IMG/VR virus record: IMGVR_UViG_3300025416_000002
Location: 16,552-80,551 of that record
Reading direction: 5' to 3' (one strand)
From: a virus
Taxonomy: Duplodnaviria > Caudoviricetes
Length of the DNA stretch: 64,000 nucleotides
The notes below the pieces were generated by a model, which was not told the DNA's origin, did no database searches, and saw nothing but the letters and a program-made list of their open reading frames with translations. Of this stretch, positions 1,780 to 47,482 are shown one piece after another. Within the stretch, counting starts at the first letter, position 1. Each line of letters starts with the position of its first letter. The position numbers were made by a program, and so were the translations under genes.

Positions 1780-3270
1780 ATGGCACGTTATCGCCAAGAC
1801 TTTTTATCTGGTGTAGCAACCGTAACAACGACAACTGGACTAGTTCTTACTGGAACAGGATTCCCCAATGGGACGATTCCTGTTGGTAGTTACATGGCTA
1901 TCACCTTGAACCCAGGGTATTACGGTTCTACGAGCTCCCCTGAGATCCTTTACATTGGCAATGGGACTACATCAACTTCTGCAGTTGTTGCTGCCAGAGG
2001 TGTAGAGGGTACCACGGCCATTACTGGCACCAACATCCCATGGGTCGCTGGTCCAACCGTGTTTGACTTCGACATGACTAACCTCACCTCAACGGGTACT
2101 GTCACGGTTAACAATGGTTTGTCGGTAACTGGAGCGATCAATGCTACCGGTGGGATTAACTCGTCTTCATTGTCGAATGTATCAGCAGCTGGTACATCCC
2201 AGGGTACTGCAACTGCGATCACCACTCAGTACACGGTTGTTAGCGGTGGCACGAACTCACTTGGTAATGGATCCTCTGGTGCTGGTGTAGTTCTCCCATC
2301 GATCTCAACAACTGGCCAGAAAGCCACTATCGATAACTCAACCAACAACTGGCTTCTTATCTACCCAGCTACCGGTCAAAGCATTGATGCTGCGGGGACA
2401 AACGCTGCTGTATGGGTTACTCCGTCTGGTTACTGGCAGGGCTACGCTGAGACTTCTACGTCTTGGGCAACAGTTATCCCATCGCTTAACGCTGACTCAA
2501 CAGGCACAGTAAACGTTTCCTACGGCAATGGCCAGGTATCATTTGGTATTCCAACGTCTCTAAAAATTCCCGGCAATCTAACAGTAAGTGGTGGTACAAC
2601 AGTACTAGGATCTTTGGGTGTTGCAGGAAACTTCAATGCCAATGGTACTTCAGTCGTATTTCCCAGTGGATCACTGCAAGTTGCTGGAAGTATAACCACA
2701 AGTGGTACATTACAAGCCACCACAATTACGGGTACAACTGTAAATGTTGGTGGTAACTTAACAGTAAGTGGCGTGAGCATCACCGGTGTTCCTAGAGCTC
2801 GCATGAGTTCTACTGCTCAGACCACTATTGCCCCAAGCGGTTCATACACACAAGTTGCGAACATGCTCGCAAGTGCTTCGGGTGGTGTTACCTATGGTTT
2901 CTTAAGTGGTGGTTTTACTTTCTCTAGCAATGCTTTGGTTGTTCCTCTCACTGGTTACTACCAAATCAATGCTTCCGTTGGTTTTAGCAACGGTACTGGT
3001 GACCCAACCATTGCTGGTGTTTACGGCATCCAAGTAGACTATGCTGCATCGCCCAGCTATGTCGGAGCTTCTGCTTACCTGGTTAACGCATCTACTGCAG
3101 GAGCTTATGGTCAGGTACCAGAAACCATTGTTTGCTCTGACATTGTTTACTGTGTCGCTGGAACTACACTTACTCTGTTCGCATATTCCCCATCAACATT
3201 TAACCAGGGTGTTGGTGCCGTTGCTGGTCCACAGACTACATACTTATCAGTTTATTACATCGGTAGCTAA
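1780..3270 (+). CDS. Tail fibre-like protein with C-terminal beta-sandwich (C1q/TNF-like) tip
   Basis: Thr/Gly/Ser-rich shaft repeats (LTVSG, GNLTV); C-terminal ALVVPLTGYYQINASV...TYLSVYYIG resembles C1q-like fibre tips. Confidence 0.6.
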   Translation: MARYRQDFLSGVATVTTTTGLVLTGTGFPNGTIPVGSYMAITLNPGYYGSTSSPEILYIGNGTTSTSAVVAARGVEGTTAITGTNIPWVAGPTVFDFDMTNLTSTGTVTVNNGLSVTGAINATGGINSSSLSNVSAAGTSQGTATAITTQYTVVSGGTNSLGNGSSGAGVVLPSISTTGQKATIDNSTNNWLLIYPATGQSIDAAGTNAAVWVTPSGYWQGYAETSTSWATVIPSLNADSTGTVNVSYGNGQVSFGIPTSLKIPGNLTVSGGTTVLGSLGVAGNFNANGTSVVFPSGSLQVAGSITTSGTLQATTITGTTVNVGGNLTVSGVSITGVPRARMSSTAQTTIAPSGSYTQVANMLASASGGVTYGFLSGGFTFSSNALVVPLTGYYQINASVGFSNGTGDPTIAGVYGIQVDYAASPSYVGASAYLVNASTAGAYGQVPETIVCSDIVYCVAGTTLTLFAYSPSTFNQGVGAVAGPQTTYLSVYYIGS

Positions 3271-30903: not shown

Positions 30904-31716
30904 ATGACAGTGCGCATGGTTGATAAGTACCCAGGATCAAAAGCCTGGCAGTACAATTTCGATGCCCCAGAAGGATACTGGCCAGCAAACTGCAACGTAT
31001 ATGTTGGAGATGGTAAGCCAGCTATCGTAGTTACCTGTAGGAACCTATCTATTGGCGACGACTATCAGCCAGTATGGGGAGAGCAAGGTGTTATTAGAAC
31101 TAGAAGTTACTTTGCTTTTGTCGATGATGAGTTCAACCCAATCAGTGAATGGAAAGAGCTGGATCAGCCAAACGTAGATGTTCACTTCCCAGCTGTTCGT
31201 GGAGCTGAAGACCCACGTCTTTACTACCGTGATGGCAAGTGGATGTGGGCTGGAACAATCCGTGAACACCACCCCAGTGGAGATCCAAGAGTCTGTGTCG
31301 GCACCGTTGATGATGGTATGCTATACATTGTTGATGGTAATGGATGGGTGAAGAACCAGATGCCGACCACGGTTGACAATCCTGAGTTCATTGATTCAGA
31401 TACACCACGTACACCTCACTTGCATGGTGGTGGCGTGTTCCCATATGGTGATGGATACATTGGCATTTGTAAGGGCCACATGAATGCAACGTGGCCACAT
31501 CGCACATACTTGAGCCAGTTTGCATTGTTCGATGCTGCAGGGAACATCACACACTTAACAGAGAAGTTCACAATGACTGAGTGCCCGATTGAAGTCGCAA
31601 CCGGTTTGACATTGTATAAGGATGAATTGATTATTGGCTTTGGGTTAATGGACCGAGAAGCCTGGCTGGCAAAGGTTCCTCTGGGACCTGTATTGGATAG
31701 TATGGTAGAACTATGA
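30904..31716 (+). CDS. Five-bladed beta-propeller glycoside hydrolase/phosphorylase-like protein (GH43/GH130-like)
   Basis: EDPRL, KNQMP, HGGG and IEVATGL motifs; inside the glycosylation island. Confidence 0.6.
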   Translation: MTVRMVDKYPGSKAWQYNFDAPEGYWPANCNVYVGDGKPAIVVTCRNLSIGDDYQPVWGEQGVIRTRSYFAFVDDEFNPISEWKELDQPNVDVHFPAVRGAEDPRLYYRDGKWMWAGTIREHHPSGDPRVCVGTVDDGMLYIVDGNGWVKNQMPTTVDNPEFIDSDTPRTPHLHGGGVFPYGDGYIGICKGHMNATWPHRTYLSQFALFDAAGNITHLTEKFTMTECPIEVATGLTLYKDELIIGFGLMDREAWLAKVPLGPVLDSMVEL

Positions 31717-32582
31717 ACATTTTGATAACTGGACACAAGGGATTCGTCGGTAGATACTTCTGCAAGAAGTACGGAAGCGACCACGACATCACTGGCATTG
31801 ACATCGTTGATGGTAACGATGCTAGAGAATTCTTCAGGATTAACAATCAACACTACGATTTGGTAATCCACTTGGCAGCTGTTGTTGGCGGACGCATGAC
31901 TATCGAAGGCGCACCGTTGTCAGTAGCTGTAGACCTTGCTATCGATGCTGAAATGTTTCAGTGGGCATTGCGTACAAAGCCAGGGCGCATCGTGTACTTC
32001 TCTAGCTCCGCTGCGTATCCCATTGAGTTGCAGACAAGAGACTCGGGCATCAAGCTTCGTGAAGATGCTATTGACATCAACAACTTGAAGATGCCTGATC
32101 TTACGTACGGTTGGAGCAAACTGACTGGCGAATACCAGGCTCAGTTCGTGCAAGCAGAAGGTATTAAGATCAACGTCTTTAGGCCGTTCAGTGGTTATGG
32201 TGCTGATCAAGATCTTGCTTACCCTTTCCCATCGTTCATCAAGCGTGGGAAAGAGCTGCAAAACCCGTTTGAGATCTGGGGTGATGGCACACAGGTTAGA
32301 GATTTTATCCACATCACAGACATTGTAGACGCGGTAGATGAAGCGATTAGACAAGACGTGCAAGGCCCAGTAAACTTGGGCTGGGGTAGGTCAACTTCAT
32401 TCAACGAGCTGGCTACAATGGTTGCTGATGCTGCAGGATATTCTCCAGAGATCAAGCACCTGGAAGCTGCTCCAACTGGCGTGATGTATAGAGTGTGTGA
32501 TCCCGCTAAGATGTTGTCGTTTTATCAACCCAAGATCACACTCGAACAAGGGATTGAGGAGGCGTTACAGTATGACATTTGA
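31713..32582 (+). CDS. NAD-dependent nucleotide-sugar epimerase/dehydratase (extended SDR)
   Basis: ITGHKGFVG Rossmann motif, HLAA, SSSAAY, YGWSK (YxxxK), VRDFIHITDIV. Confidence 0.9.
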   Translation: MNILITGHKGFVGRYFCKKYGSDHDITGIDIVDGNDAREFFRINNQHYDLVIHLAAVVGGRMTIEGAPLSVAVDLAIDAEMFQWALRTKPGRIVYFSSSAAYPIELQTRDSGIKLREDAIDINNLKMPDLTYGWSKLTGEYQAQFVQAEGIKINVFRPFSGYGADQDLAYPFPSFIKRGKELQNPFEIWGDGTQVRDFIHITDIVDAVDEAIRQDVQGPVNLGWGRSTSFNELATMVADAAGYSPEIKHLEAAPTGVMYRVCDPAKMLSFYQPKITLEQGIEEALQYDI

Positions 32583-32888: not shown

Positions 32889-32920
32889 TCCGAACGAAGC
32901 AAATACCGTAGATGCAGCAA

Positions 32921-32952
32921 GGGGCCTGGGTATGCCCCCTAACAACTACCCA
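32921..32952 (+). ncRNA. H-type pseudoknot motif, copy 1
   Basis: S1 GGGGC/GCCCC, L1 C, S2 TGGGTA/TACCCA, L3 CTAACAAC; second copy at 44154-44180. Confidence 0.6.
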
Positions 32953-32955
32953 CAA

Positions 32956-33029
32956 CTGGTAGTGGCTCAACTTGGTAGAGCGGTTGGTTTGGGTCCAACA
33001 GGTTGGGGGTTCAAATCCCTCCTACCAGA
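32956..33029 (+). tRNA. tRNA-Pro(UGG)
   Basis: Acceptor CTGGTAG/CTACCAG, anticodon arm GTTGG-TT TGG GT-CCAAC, TTCAAAT T-loop. Confidence 0.92.
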
Positions 33030-33036
33030 CGCATTA

Positions 33037-33108
33037 GCCCTTGTAGCTCAGAGGAAGAGCATCTGTTTTGTAATCAGAGGGTCGGGGGTTCAAATCCCTC
33101 CGGGGGCA
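33037..33108 (+). tRNA. tRNA-Thr(UGU)
   Basis: Acceptor GCCCTTG/CGGGGGC, TAGCTCAG D-arm, loop TT TGT AA, TTCAAAT T-loop. Confidence 0.88.
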
Positions 33109-33110
33109 CT

Positions 33111-36157: not shown

Positions 36158-37082
36158 CGGTCACAACATCTTCATCCGTAGCTTTAGTGGTCTTATGCGC
36201 CACGGTCTTAGCGCACCCAATGGAGAAGGTACCTGGGGAGCATACGGTGCGTACAACGTACTAACCAGTATGATCCGCAAGTATGACCCAAGCCACGTAC
36301 TCATCGCATTCGATAAGGGCCGGAGCACCAAGCGTCTAGCCATTGATCCAGAGTACAAGGCCAACCGTCACAAGCCAAGCGACAAGCCACGCAACCCGAC
36401 AGACGAGGCGTTCTCTACGGAGTTCAAGCCACAGCTCGGTACGTTTATGAACCTCTGTCTTAAGAGTGGAGTACCGTTCATGAGTCTGGACGGTGTGGAG
36501 GCCGATGACATCATCGCCACTGCTGCACTTAAGCACCAGACTGTATTCGATAAGATCGTTATCGTCAGTGCTGACCACGACCTTCACCAGTTGATCCGTC
36601 CTAACATCATCGTTGTCAAGCCAAGCATCAGCTACCGTGACATCGAAGCTGAAATCTATGACATGGAGTCAGTCAAGAATGAGTGGGGTGTAGAGCCATC
36701 TAGGCTATCTGAGATCTGGGCACTCATGGGTGACAAGGGTGACAACATCAAGGGCATCCAGGGTGTTGGCCCTAAGAAGGCCACCAAGCTTATTGCAGAC
36801 CATGGAGATCTCGAGTCGGTGCTTAACCTGGATGACGAGAAGATCAAGAACAACATTGATGTAGTTCGTAAGGCCAAGTCATTGATCGAGCTGGGCATCG
36901 ATGAGACGCTACCATTCCCACCACTCGGTGACCTGCAGTTCCACCCAGTTGAACATGGTTCAGCCAACGCAGGAGCTCTCGAAGAGTTGTTCGTGAACCT
37001 GGGCTTTACTCAGATCCGAAGCAAGTGGTTCCACCGTAACCTGTGGGCTGAGACGAGAGGGTTTGGCAGAAGCCTACTGTAA
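36129..37082 (+). CDS. 5'-3' exonuclease/flap endonuclease (Pol I N-terminal domain)
   Basis: LLIDGHN, IAFD, YKANR, EADDIIAT, SADHDLHQL, LMGDKGDNIKGIQGVGPKKA. Confidence 0.92.
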   Translation: MKKSTLLLIDGHNIFIRSFSGLMRHGLSAPNGEGTWGAYGAYNVLTSMIRKYDPSHVLIAFDKGRSTKRLAIDPEYKANRHKPSDKPRNPTDEAFSTEFKPQLGTFMNLCLKSGVPFMSLDGVEADDIIATAALKHQTVFDKIVIVSADHDLHQLIRPNIIVVKPSISYRDIEAEIYDMESVKNEWGVEPSRLSEIWALMGDKGDNIKGIQGVGPKKATKLIADHGDLESVLNLDDEKIKNNIDVVRKAKSLIELGIDETLPFPPLGDLQFHPVEHGSANAGALEELFVNLGFTQIRSKWFHRNLWAETRGFGRSLL

Positions 37083-38131
37083 TGGCAAGCTGGATCGTTA
37101 ACCCATCACTGGATATGCCAGAAGTGCTCGAGCAATACGGACGCTTCCTGGAAAATGACTACCGCATGGTCATTGAATCGATGCGTGTGCCTAACTCTTT
37201 TGATGAATACTCCGAGCAAACAGGCAGAAGGTTTATCATCGTTGGTGGCAAGGAACGTCCAGGGCTCATCGCTAAGAGCGTTTTCCTTTGCCTTAAGCTA
37301 GCTGGGCCGGAGAGCATTGCTGTCTACACACCGTATCTGGATGAGATGTTCCTTGTACAGAACGTGCTCGAGAACTATGGTGAAGGCGTGCGCTCTAAGC
37401 AGTTCGCTAGCCATCATGACTTCCTAAGCATCAGCCCAGAATGGCGTGATGAGATTGACAATGCCACCGACATCATTGTGTATGGTGATGACAATGCCAT
37501 CAGCCTCTGGAGAGACTACGAGACTGTAGATCGACACGTGTGGGAGCATGGCTATACCTTTAGCTTTGGCATCGTAGACGCCAAGACGTTGACTCGGTCT
37601 ATGGTTAACGAGGTGTGCTTCGACTTCTTCTGTTTCTACGGTGAGGGAAGGCTGGCACCTAAGTTCTACTTCGTGATCGGCAACTACTCAGAGAAGCTCG
37701 TCGAGATGTTCGCCATGAATATGATTGTCAACTTCGGTTTCATCATCAACGAATACAGAGCGAAGCTGCCATTGACGCGCAGGAGCGACCTTACTCGTGA
37801 GATGTTGAACGCACCGTACTCTGCAAAATATGTACGCGTAGACGATTTGAATTCTGACACTATGTTTGATAGTCTGTACGGAGACGTTCGTTTGGTTTTC
37901 GTTGACAACGTCAGTGAGATTGAAGAGTTCGTAGAGAAGTGGGCCGACAACATCGGAACAGTCGCAATTGACTGGGATGATGACGAGGACATTATCAACG
38001 TGCTTGAAGAGTATATGGTGCCTCGCATCTGTCACATTGGTGACATGCAGTTCCCAGATTTCTTCGAGCAGTACGATGGTCTTGACGATTTCAGCGTATA
38101 TGTCAGCGATGGCTTCGAAGGTCTTAACTAG
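37082..38131 (+). CDS. LuxC-like acyl-CoA reductase (ALDH fold) homologue, catalytic Cys apparently replaced
   Basis: DIIVYGDD, EHGYTFSFGIV, DFFCFYGEGRLAP, RICHIGDMQFPDFFEQYDGLD match LuxC blocks by eye. Confidence 0.6.
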   Translation: MASWIVNPSLDMPEVLEQYGRFLENDYRMVIESMRVPNSFDEYSEQTGRRFIIVGGKERPGLIAKSVFLCLKLAGPESIAVYTPYLDEMFLVQNVLENYGEGVRSKQFASHHDFLSISPEWRDEIDNATDIIVYGDDNAISLWRDYETVDRHVWEHGYTFSFGIVDAKTLTRSMVNEVCFDFFCFYGEGRLAPKFYFVIGNYSEKLVEMFAMNMIVNFGFIINEYRAKLPLTRRSDLTREMLNAPYSAKYVRVDDLNSDTMFDSLYGDVRLVFVDNVSEIEEFVEKWADNIGTVAIDWDDDEDIINVLEEYMVPRICHIGDMQFPDFFEQYDGLDDFSVYVSDGFEGLN

Positions 38132-43854: not shown

Positions 43855-44145
43855 ATGACATTGAATGCACTAGAAGACAAGGTAATCATTAAGGTTGCCA
43901 AGGTCGAGGAGACCACCGAGAGTGGTTTCTATCTTCCAGAAACTGCAACAGCTATGCCAGACCAAGGCACTGTTGTAGCAGTGGGACCAGGCTGGACTGC
44001 TAGCAATGGAACCGTAATCCCAACTGGAATTAGTGTTGGCGATGTGGTATTGTTCAACCGCAGGGCTGCTCAGAAGATCACGGTAGACGACGAAGAGTAT
44101 CTCGTCTTCCTGTCTGAACACATCCTCGGCATCTTTACCGAGTAG
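43855..44145 (+). CDS. groES: GroES/Cpn10 co-chaperonin
   Basis: LEDKVII, TESGFYLP, GTVVAVGPG, VGDVVLF, EEYLV...ILGI. Confidence 0.92.
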   Translation: MTLNALEDKVIIKVAKVEETTESGFYLPETATAMPDQGTVVAVGPGWTASNGTVIPTGISVGDVVLFNRRAAQKITVDDEEYLVFLSEHILGIFTE

Positions 44146-44153
44146 CGTTGCAA

Positions 44154-44180
44154 GACCTGGGTACGTCATTAAACTACCCA
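44154..44180 (+). ncRNA. H-type pseudoknot motif, copy 2
   Basis: S1 GAC/GTC, L1 C, S2 TGGGTA/TACCCA, L3 ATTAAAC; same core as 32921-32952. Confidence 0.6.
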
Positions 44181-44200
44181 ACTAACAAGTAAGGATTACC

Positions 44201-47200
44201 ATGACAGATAAACTTGTCCACCTCCACGTTCACACCGAACACTCATTCCTGGATGGACTTCAGACAGTAGACCAGCTCGTAGATCGAGTGGTATCTCTCG
44301 ACCAAGAAGCTGTAGCTATCACTGACCACGGTGAGTGCAGCGGTCACCTTCGCCTTCAGCATGCAGCTGACAAGGCTGGCATCAAGCCTATCTTCGGTAT
44401 GGAAGGATACTTCACCGACAACCGGTTCGATAAGACTGGTAAGAAGGGTGAGAACTACGACCACATGACCATCGTGGCTATGAATGCCAAAGGTCTGGAG
44501 AACCTGTGGTCTCTGTCGAGTCTAGCTTATATCGAGGGTAGCTACTACGGCAACCCACGCTTTGACTGGGAACTCCTGGAGCGTTACAACGAGGGCCTGA
44601 TCGTTACTGGTGGCTGCATGGGTGGCTGCATTGGTAAGCACCTCAAGGATGATGGTATCTACCAGCGTGCTGTAGAACGTATCAGCCGTTACCAAGCCAT
44701 CTTCGGTGATCGTTTCCACCTTGAGCTGCACACTTACCTTGACCCTGAGAGCAACGAGTGGAACATGCGAGTGGCCGAAGCAGCCATTGACTACAGCGTT
44801 CCTCTGCTTGCTGTCAGCGACGCACACTACGCTGAGCCTGACCACTGGTTTGCTCACGAGCTCATGACTGCTGTGCAGATGGGCAAGACTGTTGACGACC
44901 CCACACGATTCAGCTACGGTCCTAACCAGCTGTGCATCTTCTCAGAGGAGGAGACACGTAGTCGTCTAAGTTATTTGCCTGAGTCACTCGTTGACCAGGC
45001 GATCAATCGCACCAACGAGATTGCACAGATGTGTGATGCCCGTGTACCTGGTGCACGCAAGATGCCTGTGTTCTACAACACTGCAGCGATGGACGAGCGC
45101 AAGCTCCGTGAAACTGTAGAAGAAGGCTTCAAGCGAAAGATCGAAGGCCACGTAACTGAAGAGATGCTCCCTGTCTACCGTGAGCGTATCGAATATGAAA
45201 TGGATGTCATTGTAACCCGTGGGTTCCCGGGGTACTTTCTAACCGTACAAGACATTATTAACTGGAGTAAAAATGAAAACTTTTTGGTTGGTCCTAGCCG
45301 TGGTTCAGTCGGCGGAAGCCTTCTTGCTTATGTTATGGACATCACGGAAGTCGATCCGATCCCTTCTGGCCTTATCTTTGAGCGCTTTCTTAACCCTGAG
45401 CGCGTCTCTATGCCTGATATTGACATTGACATGCCAAAACTTGAGCGTGGAATGGTGCGCGACTATCTGGAGCGTAAGTATGGCCGCAACAATATTGCTT
45501 CTATCGGCACTCTCAACACGTTAGGCGCACGCCAGGCTATCCGAGACCTATGTCGTGGCATGGGCATCAGCAAAGACGATGCAGCAACCATGTCTGACAT
45601 CATCGATGACGACTGGAACATCAAGAACCGTGGTGCAGACTGGGCTACCGTCTACAAGCAGTACCGTTCTGAGTACGCTCCATGGGTTACCAAGTACCCA
45701 CAGCTCTTCGAGACACTGCCTGAGGTAGTCAACCACATCCGCCACGCCAGTGCACACGCTGCAGGCATTGTGATCAGCAAGGAACCACTCGTTGGTGCTA
45801 TGCCATTGCGCTACAGCCAGGTGAACGATGATATCCGTACGCAGTTTGACATGGGCGACATCGATGAGCTGGGCTTTGTCAAGATCGACTTGCTCGGTCT
45901 ACGTACGTTGAGTACACTCATGGCTGCATTGGATCTAATCAAGGAGAACAACGGTGGCACCCTACCTTTTGACCATTTCTATGAATGGAACAACAACTGG
46001 TCAAAGTATTACGACGACGCTGGTGTCTGGGACTCAATTGGCACCGGTCACAATATTGGATGCTTCCAGATCGAGACAGGTTCCCTTAGAAGTTTGGTTA
46101 AGCGATTCCTCCCTCGTAACATCGAAGACCTCTGCACAATGATCGCTATCTATCGTCCGGGTATTACCCGAGCGGTGGATGCAGAAACTGGCTTGAACCT
46201 CCTCGAGATGTACATGCAGAAGCGAGAAGGCAAGCGCAGGGTAACCTACAAGCACCCTAAGCTAGAAAAGATGCTGGGTGTCTCGTACGGTAGTTTCGTG
46301 TACCAGGAGCAGATCATGGAGACCTGCGTCGAGCTCGCTGGGTATACCATCGTAGAGACTGACCGTGTGCGTAAGGCAGTGGCCAAGTCTAACTACGAAG
46401 ACATGGTGGAAGAAGCTGAGATCTTCGTGCGCAAGTGCGTGGAGAACGGCGTAGACAAGGAAGTCGCCAAGTCGATCTTCGATGACATGCGTGCCTTTGG
46501 TATGTATGGATTCAACAAGTCTCACGGTTATGGCTACTCCATGCTGACCTACTGGACTGCCTGGACCAAGCACCACTACCCGCGTGAGTACATGACTGCG
46601 CTGTTCCGTACCAACCCCAAGGACAATGTGGTCTACACCCGTGAGGCTCGTCGCATGGGCATCGAGGTGCTGGGACCTGACATCAACGAGAGCGGTGGCA
46701 ACTTCACCCTTACCAAGTCAGGCAGCATCCGCTATGGCTTGAATAGTGTCAAGTACATCTCTGGCTCTGCCCAGGAGCTACAGAAGCTGGGTCCATTCTC
46801 AAGCATGGAAGACTTCGCAACGCGTGTCCCATCGAAGAAGGTGAACAAGCGTGCTGTCATTGCCATGATCAAGTGCGGTGTGTTCGACAGCATCTGTGGA
46901 GACGCTCGGACAGCTCTGCGCCAGTACCTCGAATACCGTAAGGAGAAGAACCTTGATAATCCTTGTAGCCCTGATTGCCCTCATTGCATTGGACATCTCA
47001 CTACATTTGATTGCTACGCAGATCTGCAAGAGAATGTCATGGCTCGCGGACAAAACGAGCATGAGCTACTGGGGACTATGGTTAGTGTCGATCCTCTTGC
47101 TGATTATCTGGGCATCATAGAAGAAGAGCACAATTTCCCTGGAGAGAAGAAGATGTTCCAGGGAGAGAAGGCTATGATCGGTGGGATGATCTCCCAAGTC

Positions 47201-47482
47201 AAGGAGCTGGTCACCAAGAAGGGCAAGAACCCTGGGGCGGAGATGTGCCAGGTGTGGATCGAGCTGCCCATTGACAACCTTGACGATGAGCTCATGCTTG
47301 ACGAAGATGTAGAATCAACCAAGGATGACAACGTCCAGGTGGTAGCATTCCCTGATACGTATAAGCGTATCAAGGAAGATATCCAGGTGGGTACCCCCGT
47401 CCTGGTAGAGGTGCAGAAGCTCCGTGATGGATTAAGTCTTCGCAGCATCTTCCGTCTTGACAAAATCAAAGAAGCCTGCTAG
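44201..47482 (+). CDS. dnaE: DNA polymerase III alpha subunit (family C)
   Basis: PHP HLHVH..SFLDG, RGSVGGSL, PDIDID, HAAGIV, KIDLLGL, GFNKSH, PDINES. Confidence 0.96.
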   Translation: MTDKLVHLHVHTEHSFLDGLQTVDQLVDRVVSLDQEAVAITDHGECSGHLRLQHAADKAGIKPIFGMEGYFTDNRFDKTGKKGENYDHMTIVAMNAKGLENLWSLSSLAYIEGSYYGNPRFDWELLERYNEGLIVTGGCMGGCIGKHLKDDGIYQRAVERISRYQAIFGDRFHLELHTYLDPESNEWNMRVAEAAIDYSVPLLAVSDAHYAEPDHWFAHELMTAVQMGKTVDDPTRFSYGPNQLCIFSEEETRSRLSYLPESLVDQAINRTNEIAQMCDARVPGARKMPVFYNTAAMDERKLRETVEEGFKRKIEGHVTEEMLPVYRERIEYEMDVIVTRGFPGYFLTVQDIINWSKNENFLVGPSRGSVGGSLLAYVMDITEVDPIPSGLIFERFLNPERVSMPDIDIDMPKLERGMVRDYLERKYGRNNIASIGTLNTLGARQAIRDLCRGMGISKDDAATMSDIIDDDWNIKNRGADWATVYKQYRSEYAPWVTKYPQLFETLPEVVNHIRHASAHAAGIVISKEPLVGAMPLRYSQVNDDIRTQFDMGDIDELGFVKIDLLGLRTLSTLMAALDLIKENNGGTLPFDHFYEWNNNWSKYYDDAGVWDSIGTGHNIGCFQIETGSLRSLVKRFLPRNIEDLCTMIAIYRPGITRAVDAETGLNLLEMYMQKREGKRRVTYKHPKLEKMLGVSYGSFVYQEQIMETCVELAGYTIVETDRVRKAVAKSNYEDMVEEAEIFVRKCVENGVDKEVAKSIFDDMRAFGMYGFNKSHGYGYSMLTYWTAWTKHHYPREYMTALFRTNPKDNVVYTREARRMGIEVLGPDINESGGNFTLTKSGSIRYGLNSVKYISGSAQELQKLGPFSSMEDFATRVPSKKVNKRAVIAMIKCGVFDSICGDARTALRQYLEYRKEKNLDNPCSPDCPHCIGHLTTFDCYADLQENVMARGQNEHELLGTMVSVDPLADYLGIIEEEHNFPGEKKMFQGEKAMIGGMISQVKELVTKKGKNPGAEMCQVWIELPIDNLDDELMLDEDVESTKDDNVQVVAFPDTYKRIKEDIQVGTPVLVEVQKLRDGLSLRSIFRLDKIKEAC

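Follow-up and report, generated by a model that had tools for sequence, protein, structure and literature searches.

What is the 36-base motif that ends just short of a tRNA cluster in this viral DNA, and what could it do there? The 64-kb window, by which we mean the whole stretch analysed, is part of an 80.5-kb IMG/VR record that is judged about half complete. The first-pass annotation had described positions 32917–32952 as an H-type pseudoknot preceded by GCAA and followed after 3 nt by tRNA-Pro. Re-reading of the sequence confirmed its letters, and the tRNA start at 32956, called by both ARAGORN and Rfam, confirmed the spacing. The locus is composed as follows, with the parts of the knot assigned from the sequence.

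32889–32920, plus strand: 32-nt leader ahead of copy 1, kept in G011, G019–G021 and G024
32921–32952, plus strand: knot copy 1, whole element (covariance model, 34.3 bits, E = 4e-8)
32921–32925, plus strand: 5' arm of stem 1, pairing with 32934–32938 (5 bp)
32926, plus strand: L1, a single C that is constant across the family
32927–32932, plus strand: 5' arm of stem 2, within the hairpin loop, pairing with 32947–32952 (6 bp)
32933, plus strand: junction (L2), U
32934–32938, plus strand: 3' arm of stem 1
32939–32946, plus strand: L3, 8 nt, A-rich, with AAC at its 3' end
32947–32952, plus strand: 3' arm of stem 2
32956–33030, plus strand: tRNA-Pro(UGG) (ARAGORN, Rfam)
33037–33109, plus strand: tRNA-Thr(UGU), next in the cluster (ARAGORN, Rfam)

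The 32-nt leader is kept whether the upstream neighbour is tRNA-Lys or an ORF, indicating that leader, knot and tRNA cluster move together. Near this cluster, at 37082–38131 and 31713–32582, the window also holds genes for a LuxC-like acyl-CoA reductase domain protein and an NAD-dependent epimerase/dehydratase. A covariance model run over the 64-kb window with filters off found two copies of the knot and no more. The second lies between two genes.

43855–44145, plus strand: GroES-like (Cpn10) gene, stop 8 nt upstream of copy 2
44154–44180, plus strand: knot copy 2, whole element (covariance model, 46.7 bits, E = 1e-11)
44154–44156 with 44165–44167, plus strand: stem 1, 3 bp
44157, plus strand: L1
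44158–44163 with 44175–44180, plus strand: stem 2, identical in letters to that of copy 1
44164, plus strand: L2
44168–44174, plus strand: L3, 7 nt
44201–47482, plus strand: dnaE (Pol III alpha), ATG 20 nt downstream of copy 2, SD at 44190–44195

As the annotation had stated, this intergenic copy ahead of dnaE has the same loop and tail as copy 1 and a stem 1 with other letters. This stem has 3 rather than 5 bp. In copy 1, L3 exceeds the family norm by 1–2 nt and a C replaces the first A of its AAAC. The 5' GCAA did not hold up as a family feature, as these columns vary across the covariance-model alignment.

The two window copies alone could not show covariation in stem 2; the wider family does. 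Our first covariance model encoded stem 1 only, leaving stem 2 unknown to it. In the resulting alignment of related phages, stem 1 was 97% paired, with changes on both sides in all four inner pairs, and stem 2, to which the model was blind, was 92–98% paired. None of 500 shuffles and no slid register matched the observed covariation. The stem 2 variants UGAGCA/UGCUCA, UGGCCA/UGGCCA, UGGGAA/UUCCCA, UGGUGA/UCACCA and UGAUGA/UCAUCA each come with the matching partner, and a tally gave about a dozen distinct versions, all complementary. Consistently, single changes in the loop are compensated in the tail (L080, L060), and one-base insertions in the loop are answered by an insertion in the tail (L073, L062, L079). 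Among the rows from cultured or named phages, both partners have changed in three of the six stem 2 pairs. U–G pairs are frequent in the knot stems and would be A–C on the opposite strand, which indicates that the plus-strand RNA is the one that folds. One genome (G020) contains copies that differ in their stem 2 letters; the match must thus lie within the molecule and does not reflect co-evolution of half-sites with a protein. It is therefore near certain that the motif forms a genuine pseudoknot in RNA, supported by compensatory changes in both stems.

The family shares a compact architecture. Stem 1 has 3–5 bp, and its loop-closing pair is C–G in 32 of 33 distinct rows and in all 15 isolate rows. 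The 8-nt loop consists of a C, which forms the one-base L1, the six stem 2 bases and one variable base, and its second base is U. Stem 2 is G/C-rich with 5–7 bp, the one-nucleotide junction L2 may be U, C, A or G, and the consensus after stem 1 is AAAC-U-R-C.

This linker, together with the first base of stem 2, spells TAAACT, which fits the −10 pattern TANNNT, so the motif might instead act in DNA as a sigma-70-type promoter, with starts at or just before the tRNA or ~25 nt before dnaE. Copy 2 and its orthologues do have TTGCAA 16–17 nt ahead of TAAACT, knot-free relatives of the dnaE locus have TTGACT-N17-TATAAT or TATAGT in this position, and by hand count the first base of the tRNA is the 8th to 11th base past the T of TAAACT. 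However, covariation between loop and tail, compensated insertions and G–U pairs require a folded single strand. A conserved −35 element or TG extension is absent, T occupies the first position in only about half of the copies, and a scan tool calls no promoter at either window copy. Moreover, the same linker is present in coremin, an element of RNA viruses (PMC6546385), and the gap between the knot and real downstream promoters ranges from 4 to 20 nt. We regard the promoter reading as very improbable.

Does the knot belong to a catalogued RNA class? The first-pass annotation could match it to no riboswitch or ribozyme. No Rfam family fits it: the whole window at gathering score, the 251 nt around copy 1 at E values up to 10, and 29 related loci all returned tRNAs only. 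A 30–35-nt H-type knot with an A-rich tail and a very wide distribution has the size and shape of the preQ1-I riboswitch, and these traits would fit a small-molecule sensor of this kind. Yet no Rfam riboswitch, preQ1-I (RF00522) included, matched even at E = 10; the junction base L2 varies among all four nucleotides, no expression platform is seen, with the SD 6–25 nt beyond the knot, and the neighbouring genes are unrelated, some of the neighbours being tRNAs. The prospect of a riboswitch is accordingly slim.

Several other candidates were rejected. No intrinsic terminator was called at either window copy, and a U run follows the microvirus copy only. Pistol and HDV-like (theta) ribozymes gave no Rfam ribozyme match around copy 1; presumably they can also be set aside on layout and on a comparison of the tRNA side. 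A CRISPR repeat or ToxI-like decoy does not fit, as the knot does not generally form tandem units and its tail is base-paired to its loop, and a tRNA-like RNase P substrate does not fit either, as the RCCA tail is absent.

To define the family, we used the 28 records formed with the 27 related viral records that a DnaE search returned. A loop-plus-tail pattern occurred at 12 places in eight of them and at none when read backwards; the stem 1 arms differ among the 12 matches yet always pair. The covariance model found ~45 places (E < 0.02) in 26 of the 28 records, 1–6 per record, with best matches at E = 1e-13. Given the absence of backward matches and E values down to this level, the copies are far beyond chance. 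The covariance-model search suggested in the first-pass annotation yielded further copies and covariation in related phages.

The distribution extends well beyond these relatives. A strict-pattern scan of viral contigs, which gives a lower bound, located the knot on at least 120 unrelated contigs, each with its own pairing stem 1, and the model applied to these loci revealed further copies with new, fully compensated stem 2 variants. In bacteria, sampled at one genome per species, the strict pattern occurred at 59 places, about 40 of which also pass the model; the passing bins belong to Bacillota, Patescibacteria, Omnitrophota, Planctomycetota, Chloroflexota, Cyanobacteria and others. Short BLAST queries led to copies in cultured or named phages, in gaps left without annotation, and the model confirmed the copies in 12 of these phages. 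These carriers are Microbacterium phage Count, Gordonia phage OneUp and Corynebacterium phage phi673; Moorella phage MTATph1, Geobacillus phage D6E and Staphylococcus phage StB12; Nostoc phage NMeng1, Cylindrospermopsis phage CrV and Synechococcus phages S-B05 and S-SCSM1; and the crAss-like phage cr7_1 and a 6-kb microvirus. Phage phi674, Cellulosimicrobium phage DS1 and a few others are candidates from BLAST only. Cultured phages with true copies thus have hosts in Actinomycetota, Bacillota or Cyanobacteria, or are crAss-like. Matches in phages of E. coli, Salmonella and Vibrio were short and inside genes and were discarded. So were matches on bacterial contigs that had a 10–12-nt spacer and no stem 1, which are chance or coding matches (for example, Pseudomonas, Rheinheimera, Pseudoalteromonas and Nitrosomonas loci).

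The carriers, among them a T7-like phage and a microvirus, have no obvious protein in common, and such a spread fits a self-sufficient RNA device. In every cultured phage the annotation at the true copy is "none". We found no publication on the knot family, and the main texts of the Minerva preprint and of a survey of 10,006 viral structured-RNA candidates, searched by term, do not describe the element. That the family is very widespread and uncatalogued, in phages of many bacterial phyla, is near certain.

Where does the knot sit? It is always intergenic and on the sense strand, and both neighbours are co-directional in 47 of 71 contexts. An upstream ORF stops within 60 nt in 95 of 131 distinct contexts; in 55 of these 95 the knot starts 3–11 nt past the stop codon, including 33 in which it starts 3–5 nt past it. 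A distance of 3–11 nt is the spacing of recoding knots, and in vitro coremin acts as a stimulator of −1 frameshifting (PMC10321173), so the knot might promote −1 frameshifting or stop read-through in the upstream gene. However, a suitably placed slippery X XXY YYZ heptamer was present in 1 of 131 contexts, compared with 2–4 in control windows. At the loci read on by hand (L040, L042, L100), in-frame stops come immediately, and many copies lie in untranslated RNA. The recoding reading is close to refuted, and we give it hardly any weight.

On the downstream side, the knot lies 1–4 nt ahead of a tRNA in 10 of 131 contexts, in unrelated phages, and its distance from an upstream tRNA is 19–80 nt. 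Elsewhere it is followed by an unstructured leader with an SD 6–25 nt beyond the knot, or, at some copies, by a TGnTATAAT promoter with a leaderless start, by an intrinsic terminator or by another knot. Where a promoter or terminator follows it, the knot lies outside the leader of the next gene's own transcript. Upstream genes include those for Hsp20, the major head protein, GroES and a DNA-binding protein. The knot follows Hsp20 within 8–28 nt in at least six gene orders (many loci, L083–L159), and Hsp20 retains it while six different genes follow; a small Cys-peptide ORF likewise retains it while the downstream gene changes. Five cultured phages with hsp20 (S-PM2, Melnitz, HTVC115P, PWH3a-P1 and C48C1) showed no knot after hsp20 (0/5), and a nucleotide search of the phage collection with the Hsp20-plus-knot region gave no match. 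As the copy at Hsp20 stays constant with changing downstream genes and the copy at the tRNAs with changing upstream neighbours, the knot behaves as a boundary module that is the property of neither side.

The place ahead of dnaE is a hot spot for the exchange of regulatory modules. Among dnaE relatives without the knot, L003–L005, L014 and L024 carry a near-consensus TTGACT-N17-TATAAT or TATAGT there (~2890–3000), and L006 and L026 carry a long inverted repeat.

Proximity to the upstream stop raises another explanation, that the knot belongs to the upstream message and protects its 3' end as a retroregulator, so that messages for abundant proteins outlive their neighbours. Cleavage just downstream, by RNase P at the tRNA 5' end or by an endonuclease in the unstructured linker, would leave 1–4 free bases, a tail too short for PNPase, RNase II or RNase R to load on. 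The 33 of 95 contexts with a start 3–5 nt past the stop codon, the upstream genes, which encode abundant proteins, and the constancy of the knot after Hsp20 all suit this role, as do promoters or terminators that may come after the knot. The same is true of its position flush with the downstream tRNA (1–4 nt) and 19–80 nt away from an upstream one; 3' exonucleases are moreover universal, in line with carrier genomes that show no RNase J (see below). However, an ordinary hairpin would suffice for such protection, which leaves the coremin-like conserved loop and linker unexplained. A knot between tRNA-Lys and tRNA-Pro (G019, G024) would also hinder trimming of the upstream tRNA, and in D6E and StB12 the knot precedes the scaffold gene and does not follow an abundant one. 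Overall, we consider a 3'-end protector unlikely.

What known RNA does the knot resemble? Its closest known relative is coremin (xrRNA-C) together with its Watson–Crick variant. Coremin is a 20-nt element in the RNAs of beny- and cucumoviruses and many other eukaryotic RNA viruses (PMC6546385, PMC10520033). It consists of a GUC/GAC hairpin with a CGAA loop, the spacer GUUAAACUAC and a second hairpin, and its C–G closing pair, the pyrimidine at the first loop position and spacer bases A16–A20 are essential for stalling Xrn1 (PMC6546385). Scanning ribosomes are blocked by it as well (PMC10520033). The phage knot shares the short stem 1 of the GUC/GAC kind with its C–G closing pair, the pyrimidine at L1 and the linker UUAAACUAC, which contains the same essential A-A-C-U-A core; it is likewise small and protein-free and often lies just 3' of an ORF. 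All nine letters of UUAAACUAC follow stem 1 in copy 2. In consensus members such as L114:4738–4775, both stem 1 arms and the spacer equal those of coremin, whereas loop and tail differ.

The differences lie in the loop and in what follows the linker. Coremin has a 4-nt (YGAD) or 6-nt (YGNNAD) loop with a non-canonical contact between loop and linker, whereas the 8-nt phage loop makes 5–7 Watson–Crick pairs with the tail; relative to the coremin loop consensus, its first base is Y as expected and its second is U instead of G. Coremin also needs a second hairpin (hp2) directly after the linker, and the phage knot has none: the 28 nt 3' of the knot have a mean MFE of −1.76 kcal/mol, compared with −1.73 kcal/mol for shuffles, and 5% reach −5 or lower. 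Finally, coremin acts against Xrn1, whereas the hosts of the phage knot are bacteria and lack this enzyme.

The loop pairing is shared with the Watson–Crick coremin (xrRNA-WCC), which includes variants from a screen; these form a canonical stem 2 of 3 bp and retain the ability to stall Xrn1 (PMC10321173). There, too, stem 2 is antiparallel and canonical and joins the loop to the bases after AAAC, L1 is a single base that cannot be changed, and an A-minor contact of the linker with stem 1 has been proposed (PMC10321173). It differs from the phage knot in its 3-bp stem 2 (5–7 bp in phages), its G at L1 (C in phages) and its need for hp2 in Xrn1 resistance. xrRNA-WCC is known from the laboratory screen and from two RNA viruses only, including Sanxia picorna-like virus 5 (PMC10321173). 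The three coremin papers (PMC6546385, PMC10520033, PMC10321173) make no mention of phages or bacteria, and none of the papers searched connects coremin with phages.

Other known knots are more distant. The frameshift knots of the luteovirus type (BWYV, PLRV) resemble the phage knot in size, and they too have C as L1, a junction of one base and an L3 rich in A. They need a slippery heptamer 5–9 nt upstream, which is absent at the phage knot. A knot of this type has been likened to coremin, and that of BWYV fails to stall Xrn1 (PMC10321173). In Tombusviridae and Solemoviridae, class 3 xrRNAs also form a small stem-loop with an apical loop that pairs with the 3' flank, giving a knot that resists exonucleases, but they differ in sequence and have stacked P1 and P2 helices and a 9-bp pseudoknot that rings the 5' end (PMC11702639).

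The geometry of the T-even gene 32 operator, invoked in the first-pass annotation, is that of a one-base L1 over a 6–7-bp stem 2. The likeness in shape stands: the T2/T4/RB69 gene 32 leader is also a knot in a phage mRNA, its two stems are coaxial and the leader after them is unstructured, and it nucleates gp32 binding in the leader of the SSB gene (PMC3014915). The tie to a single gene does not carry over. The gene 32 knot is unrelated in sequence and serves one gene and its own product, gp32, whereas the phage family occurs at many boundaries and at tRNAs; the window copies precede tRNA-Pro and dnaE, and other members precede many unrelated genes.

The knot might still be recognised by a conserved protein, as in the operator that the first-pass annotation considered, or by RNA polymerase. 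It would then be either a gene 32-like operator or a nut/put-like element by which transcription is modified along untranslated regions, tRNA arrays for instance. In addition to the gene 32-like shape and the ensuing unstructured leader (PMC3014915), the 1–6 copies per genome at operon junctions and at the heads of tRNA clusters, and the strong conservation of loop and linker letters, agree with such a site. However, no obvious phage protein is common to carriers as diverse as Caudoviricetes and a 6-kb microvirus, the letters of stem 2 are free to vary as long as they pair, unlike those of a sequence-specific site, and a terminator can come directly after the knot. A protein or polymerase site is in our view improbable.

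The knot resembles coremin, appears self-sufficient in phages that are unrelated to one another, and lies at boundaries. On these grounds, the best reading is that it may act as a protein-independent mechanical barrier at cistron boundaries, with emphasis on the 5'-to-3' direction. We put its probability at about 0.4. The knot would be transcribed and would fold without protein into a compact H-type pseudoknot, with the A-rich L3, ending in AAAC, probably lying in the minor groove of stem 1. Machines that track 5' to 3' would then stop at its 5' edge: an exonuclease of the RNase J type in hosts that possess one, and possibly post-termination ribosomes or RNase E acting inwards from the 5' end. 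The RNA downstream, here the tRNA-Pro/Thr cluster or the dnaE message, would thereby be uncoupled from upstream decay and translation. Whereas the fold of the knot, its conservation, its spread and its positions are observed, its triple-helix details and its role as a barrier, with the direction of that role, are inferred.

The first-pass annotation had proposed a processing or stability element, such as a block to RNase J. By analogy this guess points in the right direction, as experiments have shown the nearest known relative of the knot to block Xrn1 and scanning ribosomes (PMC6546385, PMC10520033, PMC10321173). As the whole story, RNase J does not suffice. RNase J (TIGR00649) was found in 21 of 37 knot-bearing genome bins, which are incomplete; no RNase J gene was detected in the other 16 of these 37 cellular genomes, including all five Omnitrophota bins, and RNase J is thus not the sole target. 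In favour of a 5'-to-3' block, we take the host phyla of all cultured carriers to possess RNase J, and control genomes of Bacillus, Corynebacterium and Synechococcus agree.

Further observations count against a barrier. The hp2 that coremin requires for Xrn1 resistance is missing. Copies with a promoter or a terminator after them lie outside the next gene's own leader. A knot that stays with its upstream gene fits a role at the 3' end equally well or better. And a knot 3–5 nt past a stop codon must be opened by every terminating ribosome. We suggest more tentatively, by analogy, that the family could be the first natural class of exoribonuclease- and ribosome-resistant RNAs in DNA phages and bacteria, built on the same knot as coremin, the linker UUAAACUAC included; this we hold to be possible rather than probable.

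If the barrier reading is right, the knot would be a general and so far unnoticed means by which phages set the ratios of neighbouring gene products, and tRNA clusters would be protected by the same means. Exoribonuclease-resistant RNAs would then extend from eukaryotic RNA viruses to bacteria, the physics of the knot could be tested with RNase J, RNase E and the 70S ribosome, and a portable part of ~30 nt would be at hand for stabilising or insulating cistrons in engineered operons. If the family is indeed such a resistant class, one protein-free RNA device would face unrelated 5'-to-3' machines in two domains of life, as a portable "bulkhead" that divides long phage transcripts into units with separate lifetimes. 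Whatever its function, a widespread family supported by covariation, which annotators leave blank, merits an entry in RNA catalogues.

Some loci show further peculiarities. Two tandem knots lie ~3 nt apart on one viral contig (L127:7247–7327), and a 2.1-kb Saccharibacteria contig (L233) carries three copies. In the microvirus OM869566 (L211:2995–3040), a run of six U directly follows the knot, so in this ssDNA phage of 6 kb the knot could also form a 3' end much like a terminator. At L074:776–960 (G006), the knot is followed by a tRNA-like gene on which ARAGORN makes no call; its acceptor and T arms are well formed, and its middle holds an insert of ~80 nt. At L076, ARAGORN calls a 90-nt "tRNA-???" with a four-base anticodon. 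Both may represent phage tRNAs that contain an intron or are unusual in some other way.

Arrays in which the knot alternates with gene-free units of 130–220 nt occur at L074:1–780, L053, L069 and L079 (G006, G004, G020 and G024). The units, which have no Rfam match, share a conserved block and a repeated hairpin with GGAG in its loop, followed by ATG-TAG (start-stop). In bacterial bins (L244, L245, L255, L262, L267, L269, L224, L234 and others) from Omnitrophota, Planctomycetota, Desulfobacterota and other phyla, a strong SD and an ORF of 18–27 codons precede the knot. The ORF encodes a conserved H-C-x-x-G-C peptide, its stop lies in or just ahead of the knot, and a gene for an Rrf2-type regulator is often next; this arrangement may be a leader-peptide device.
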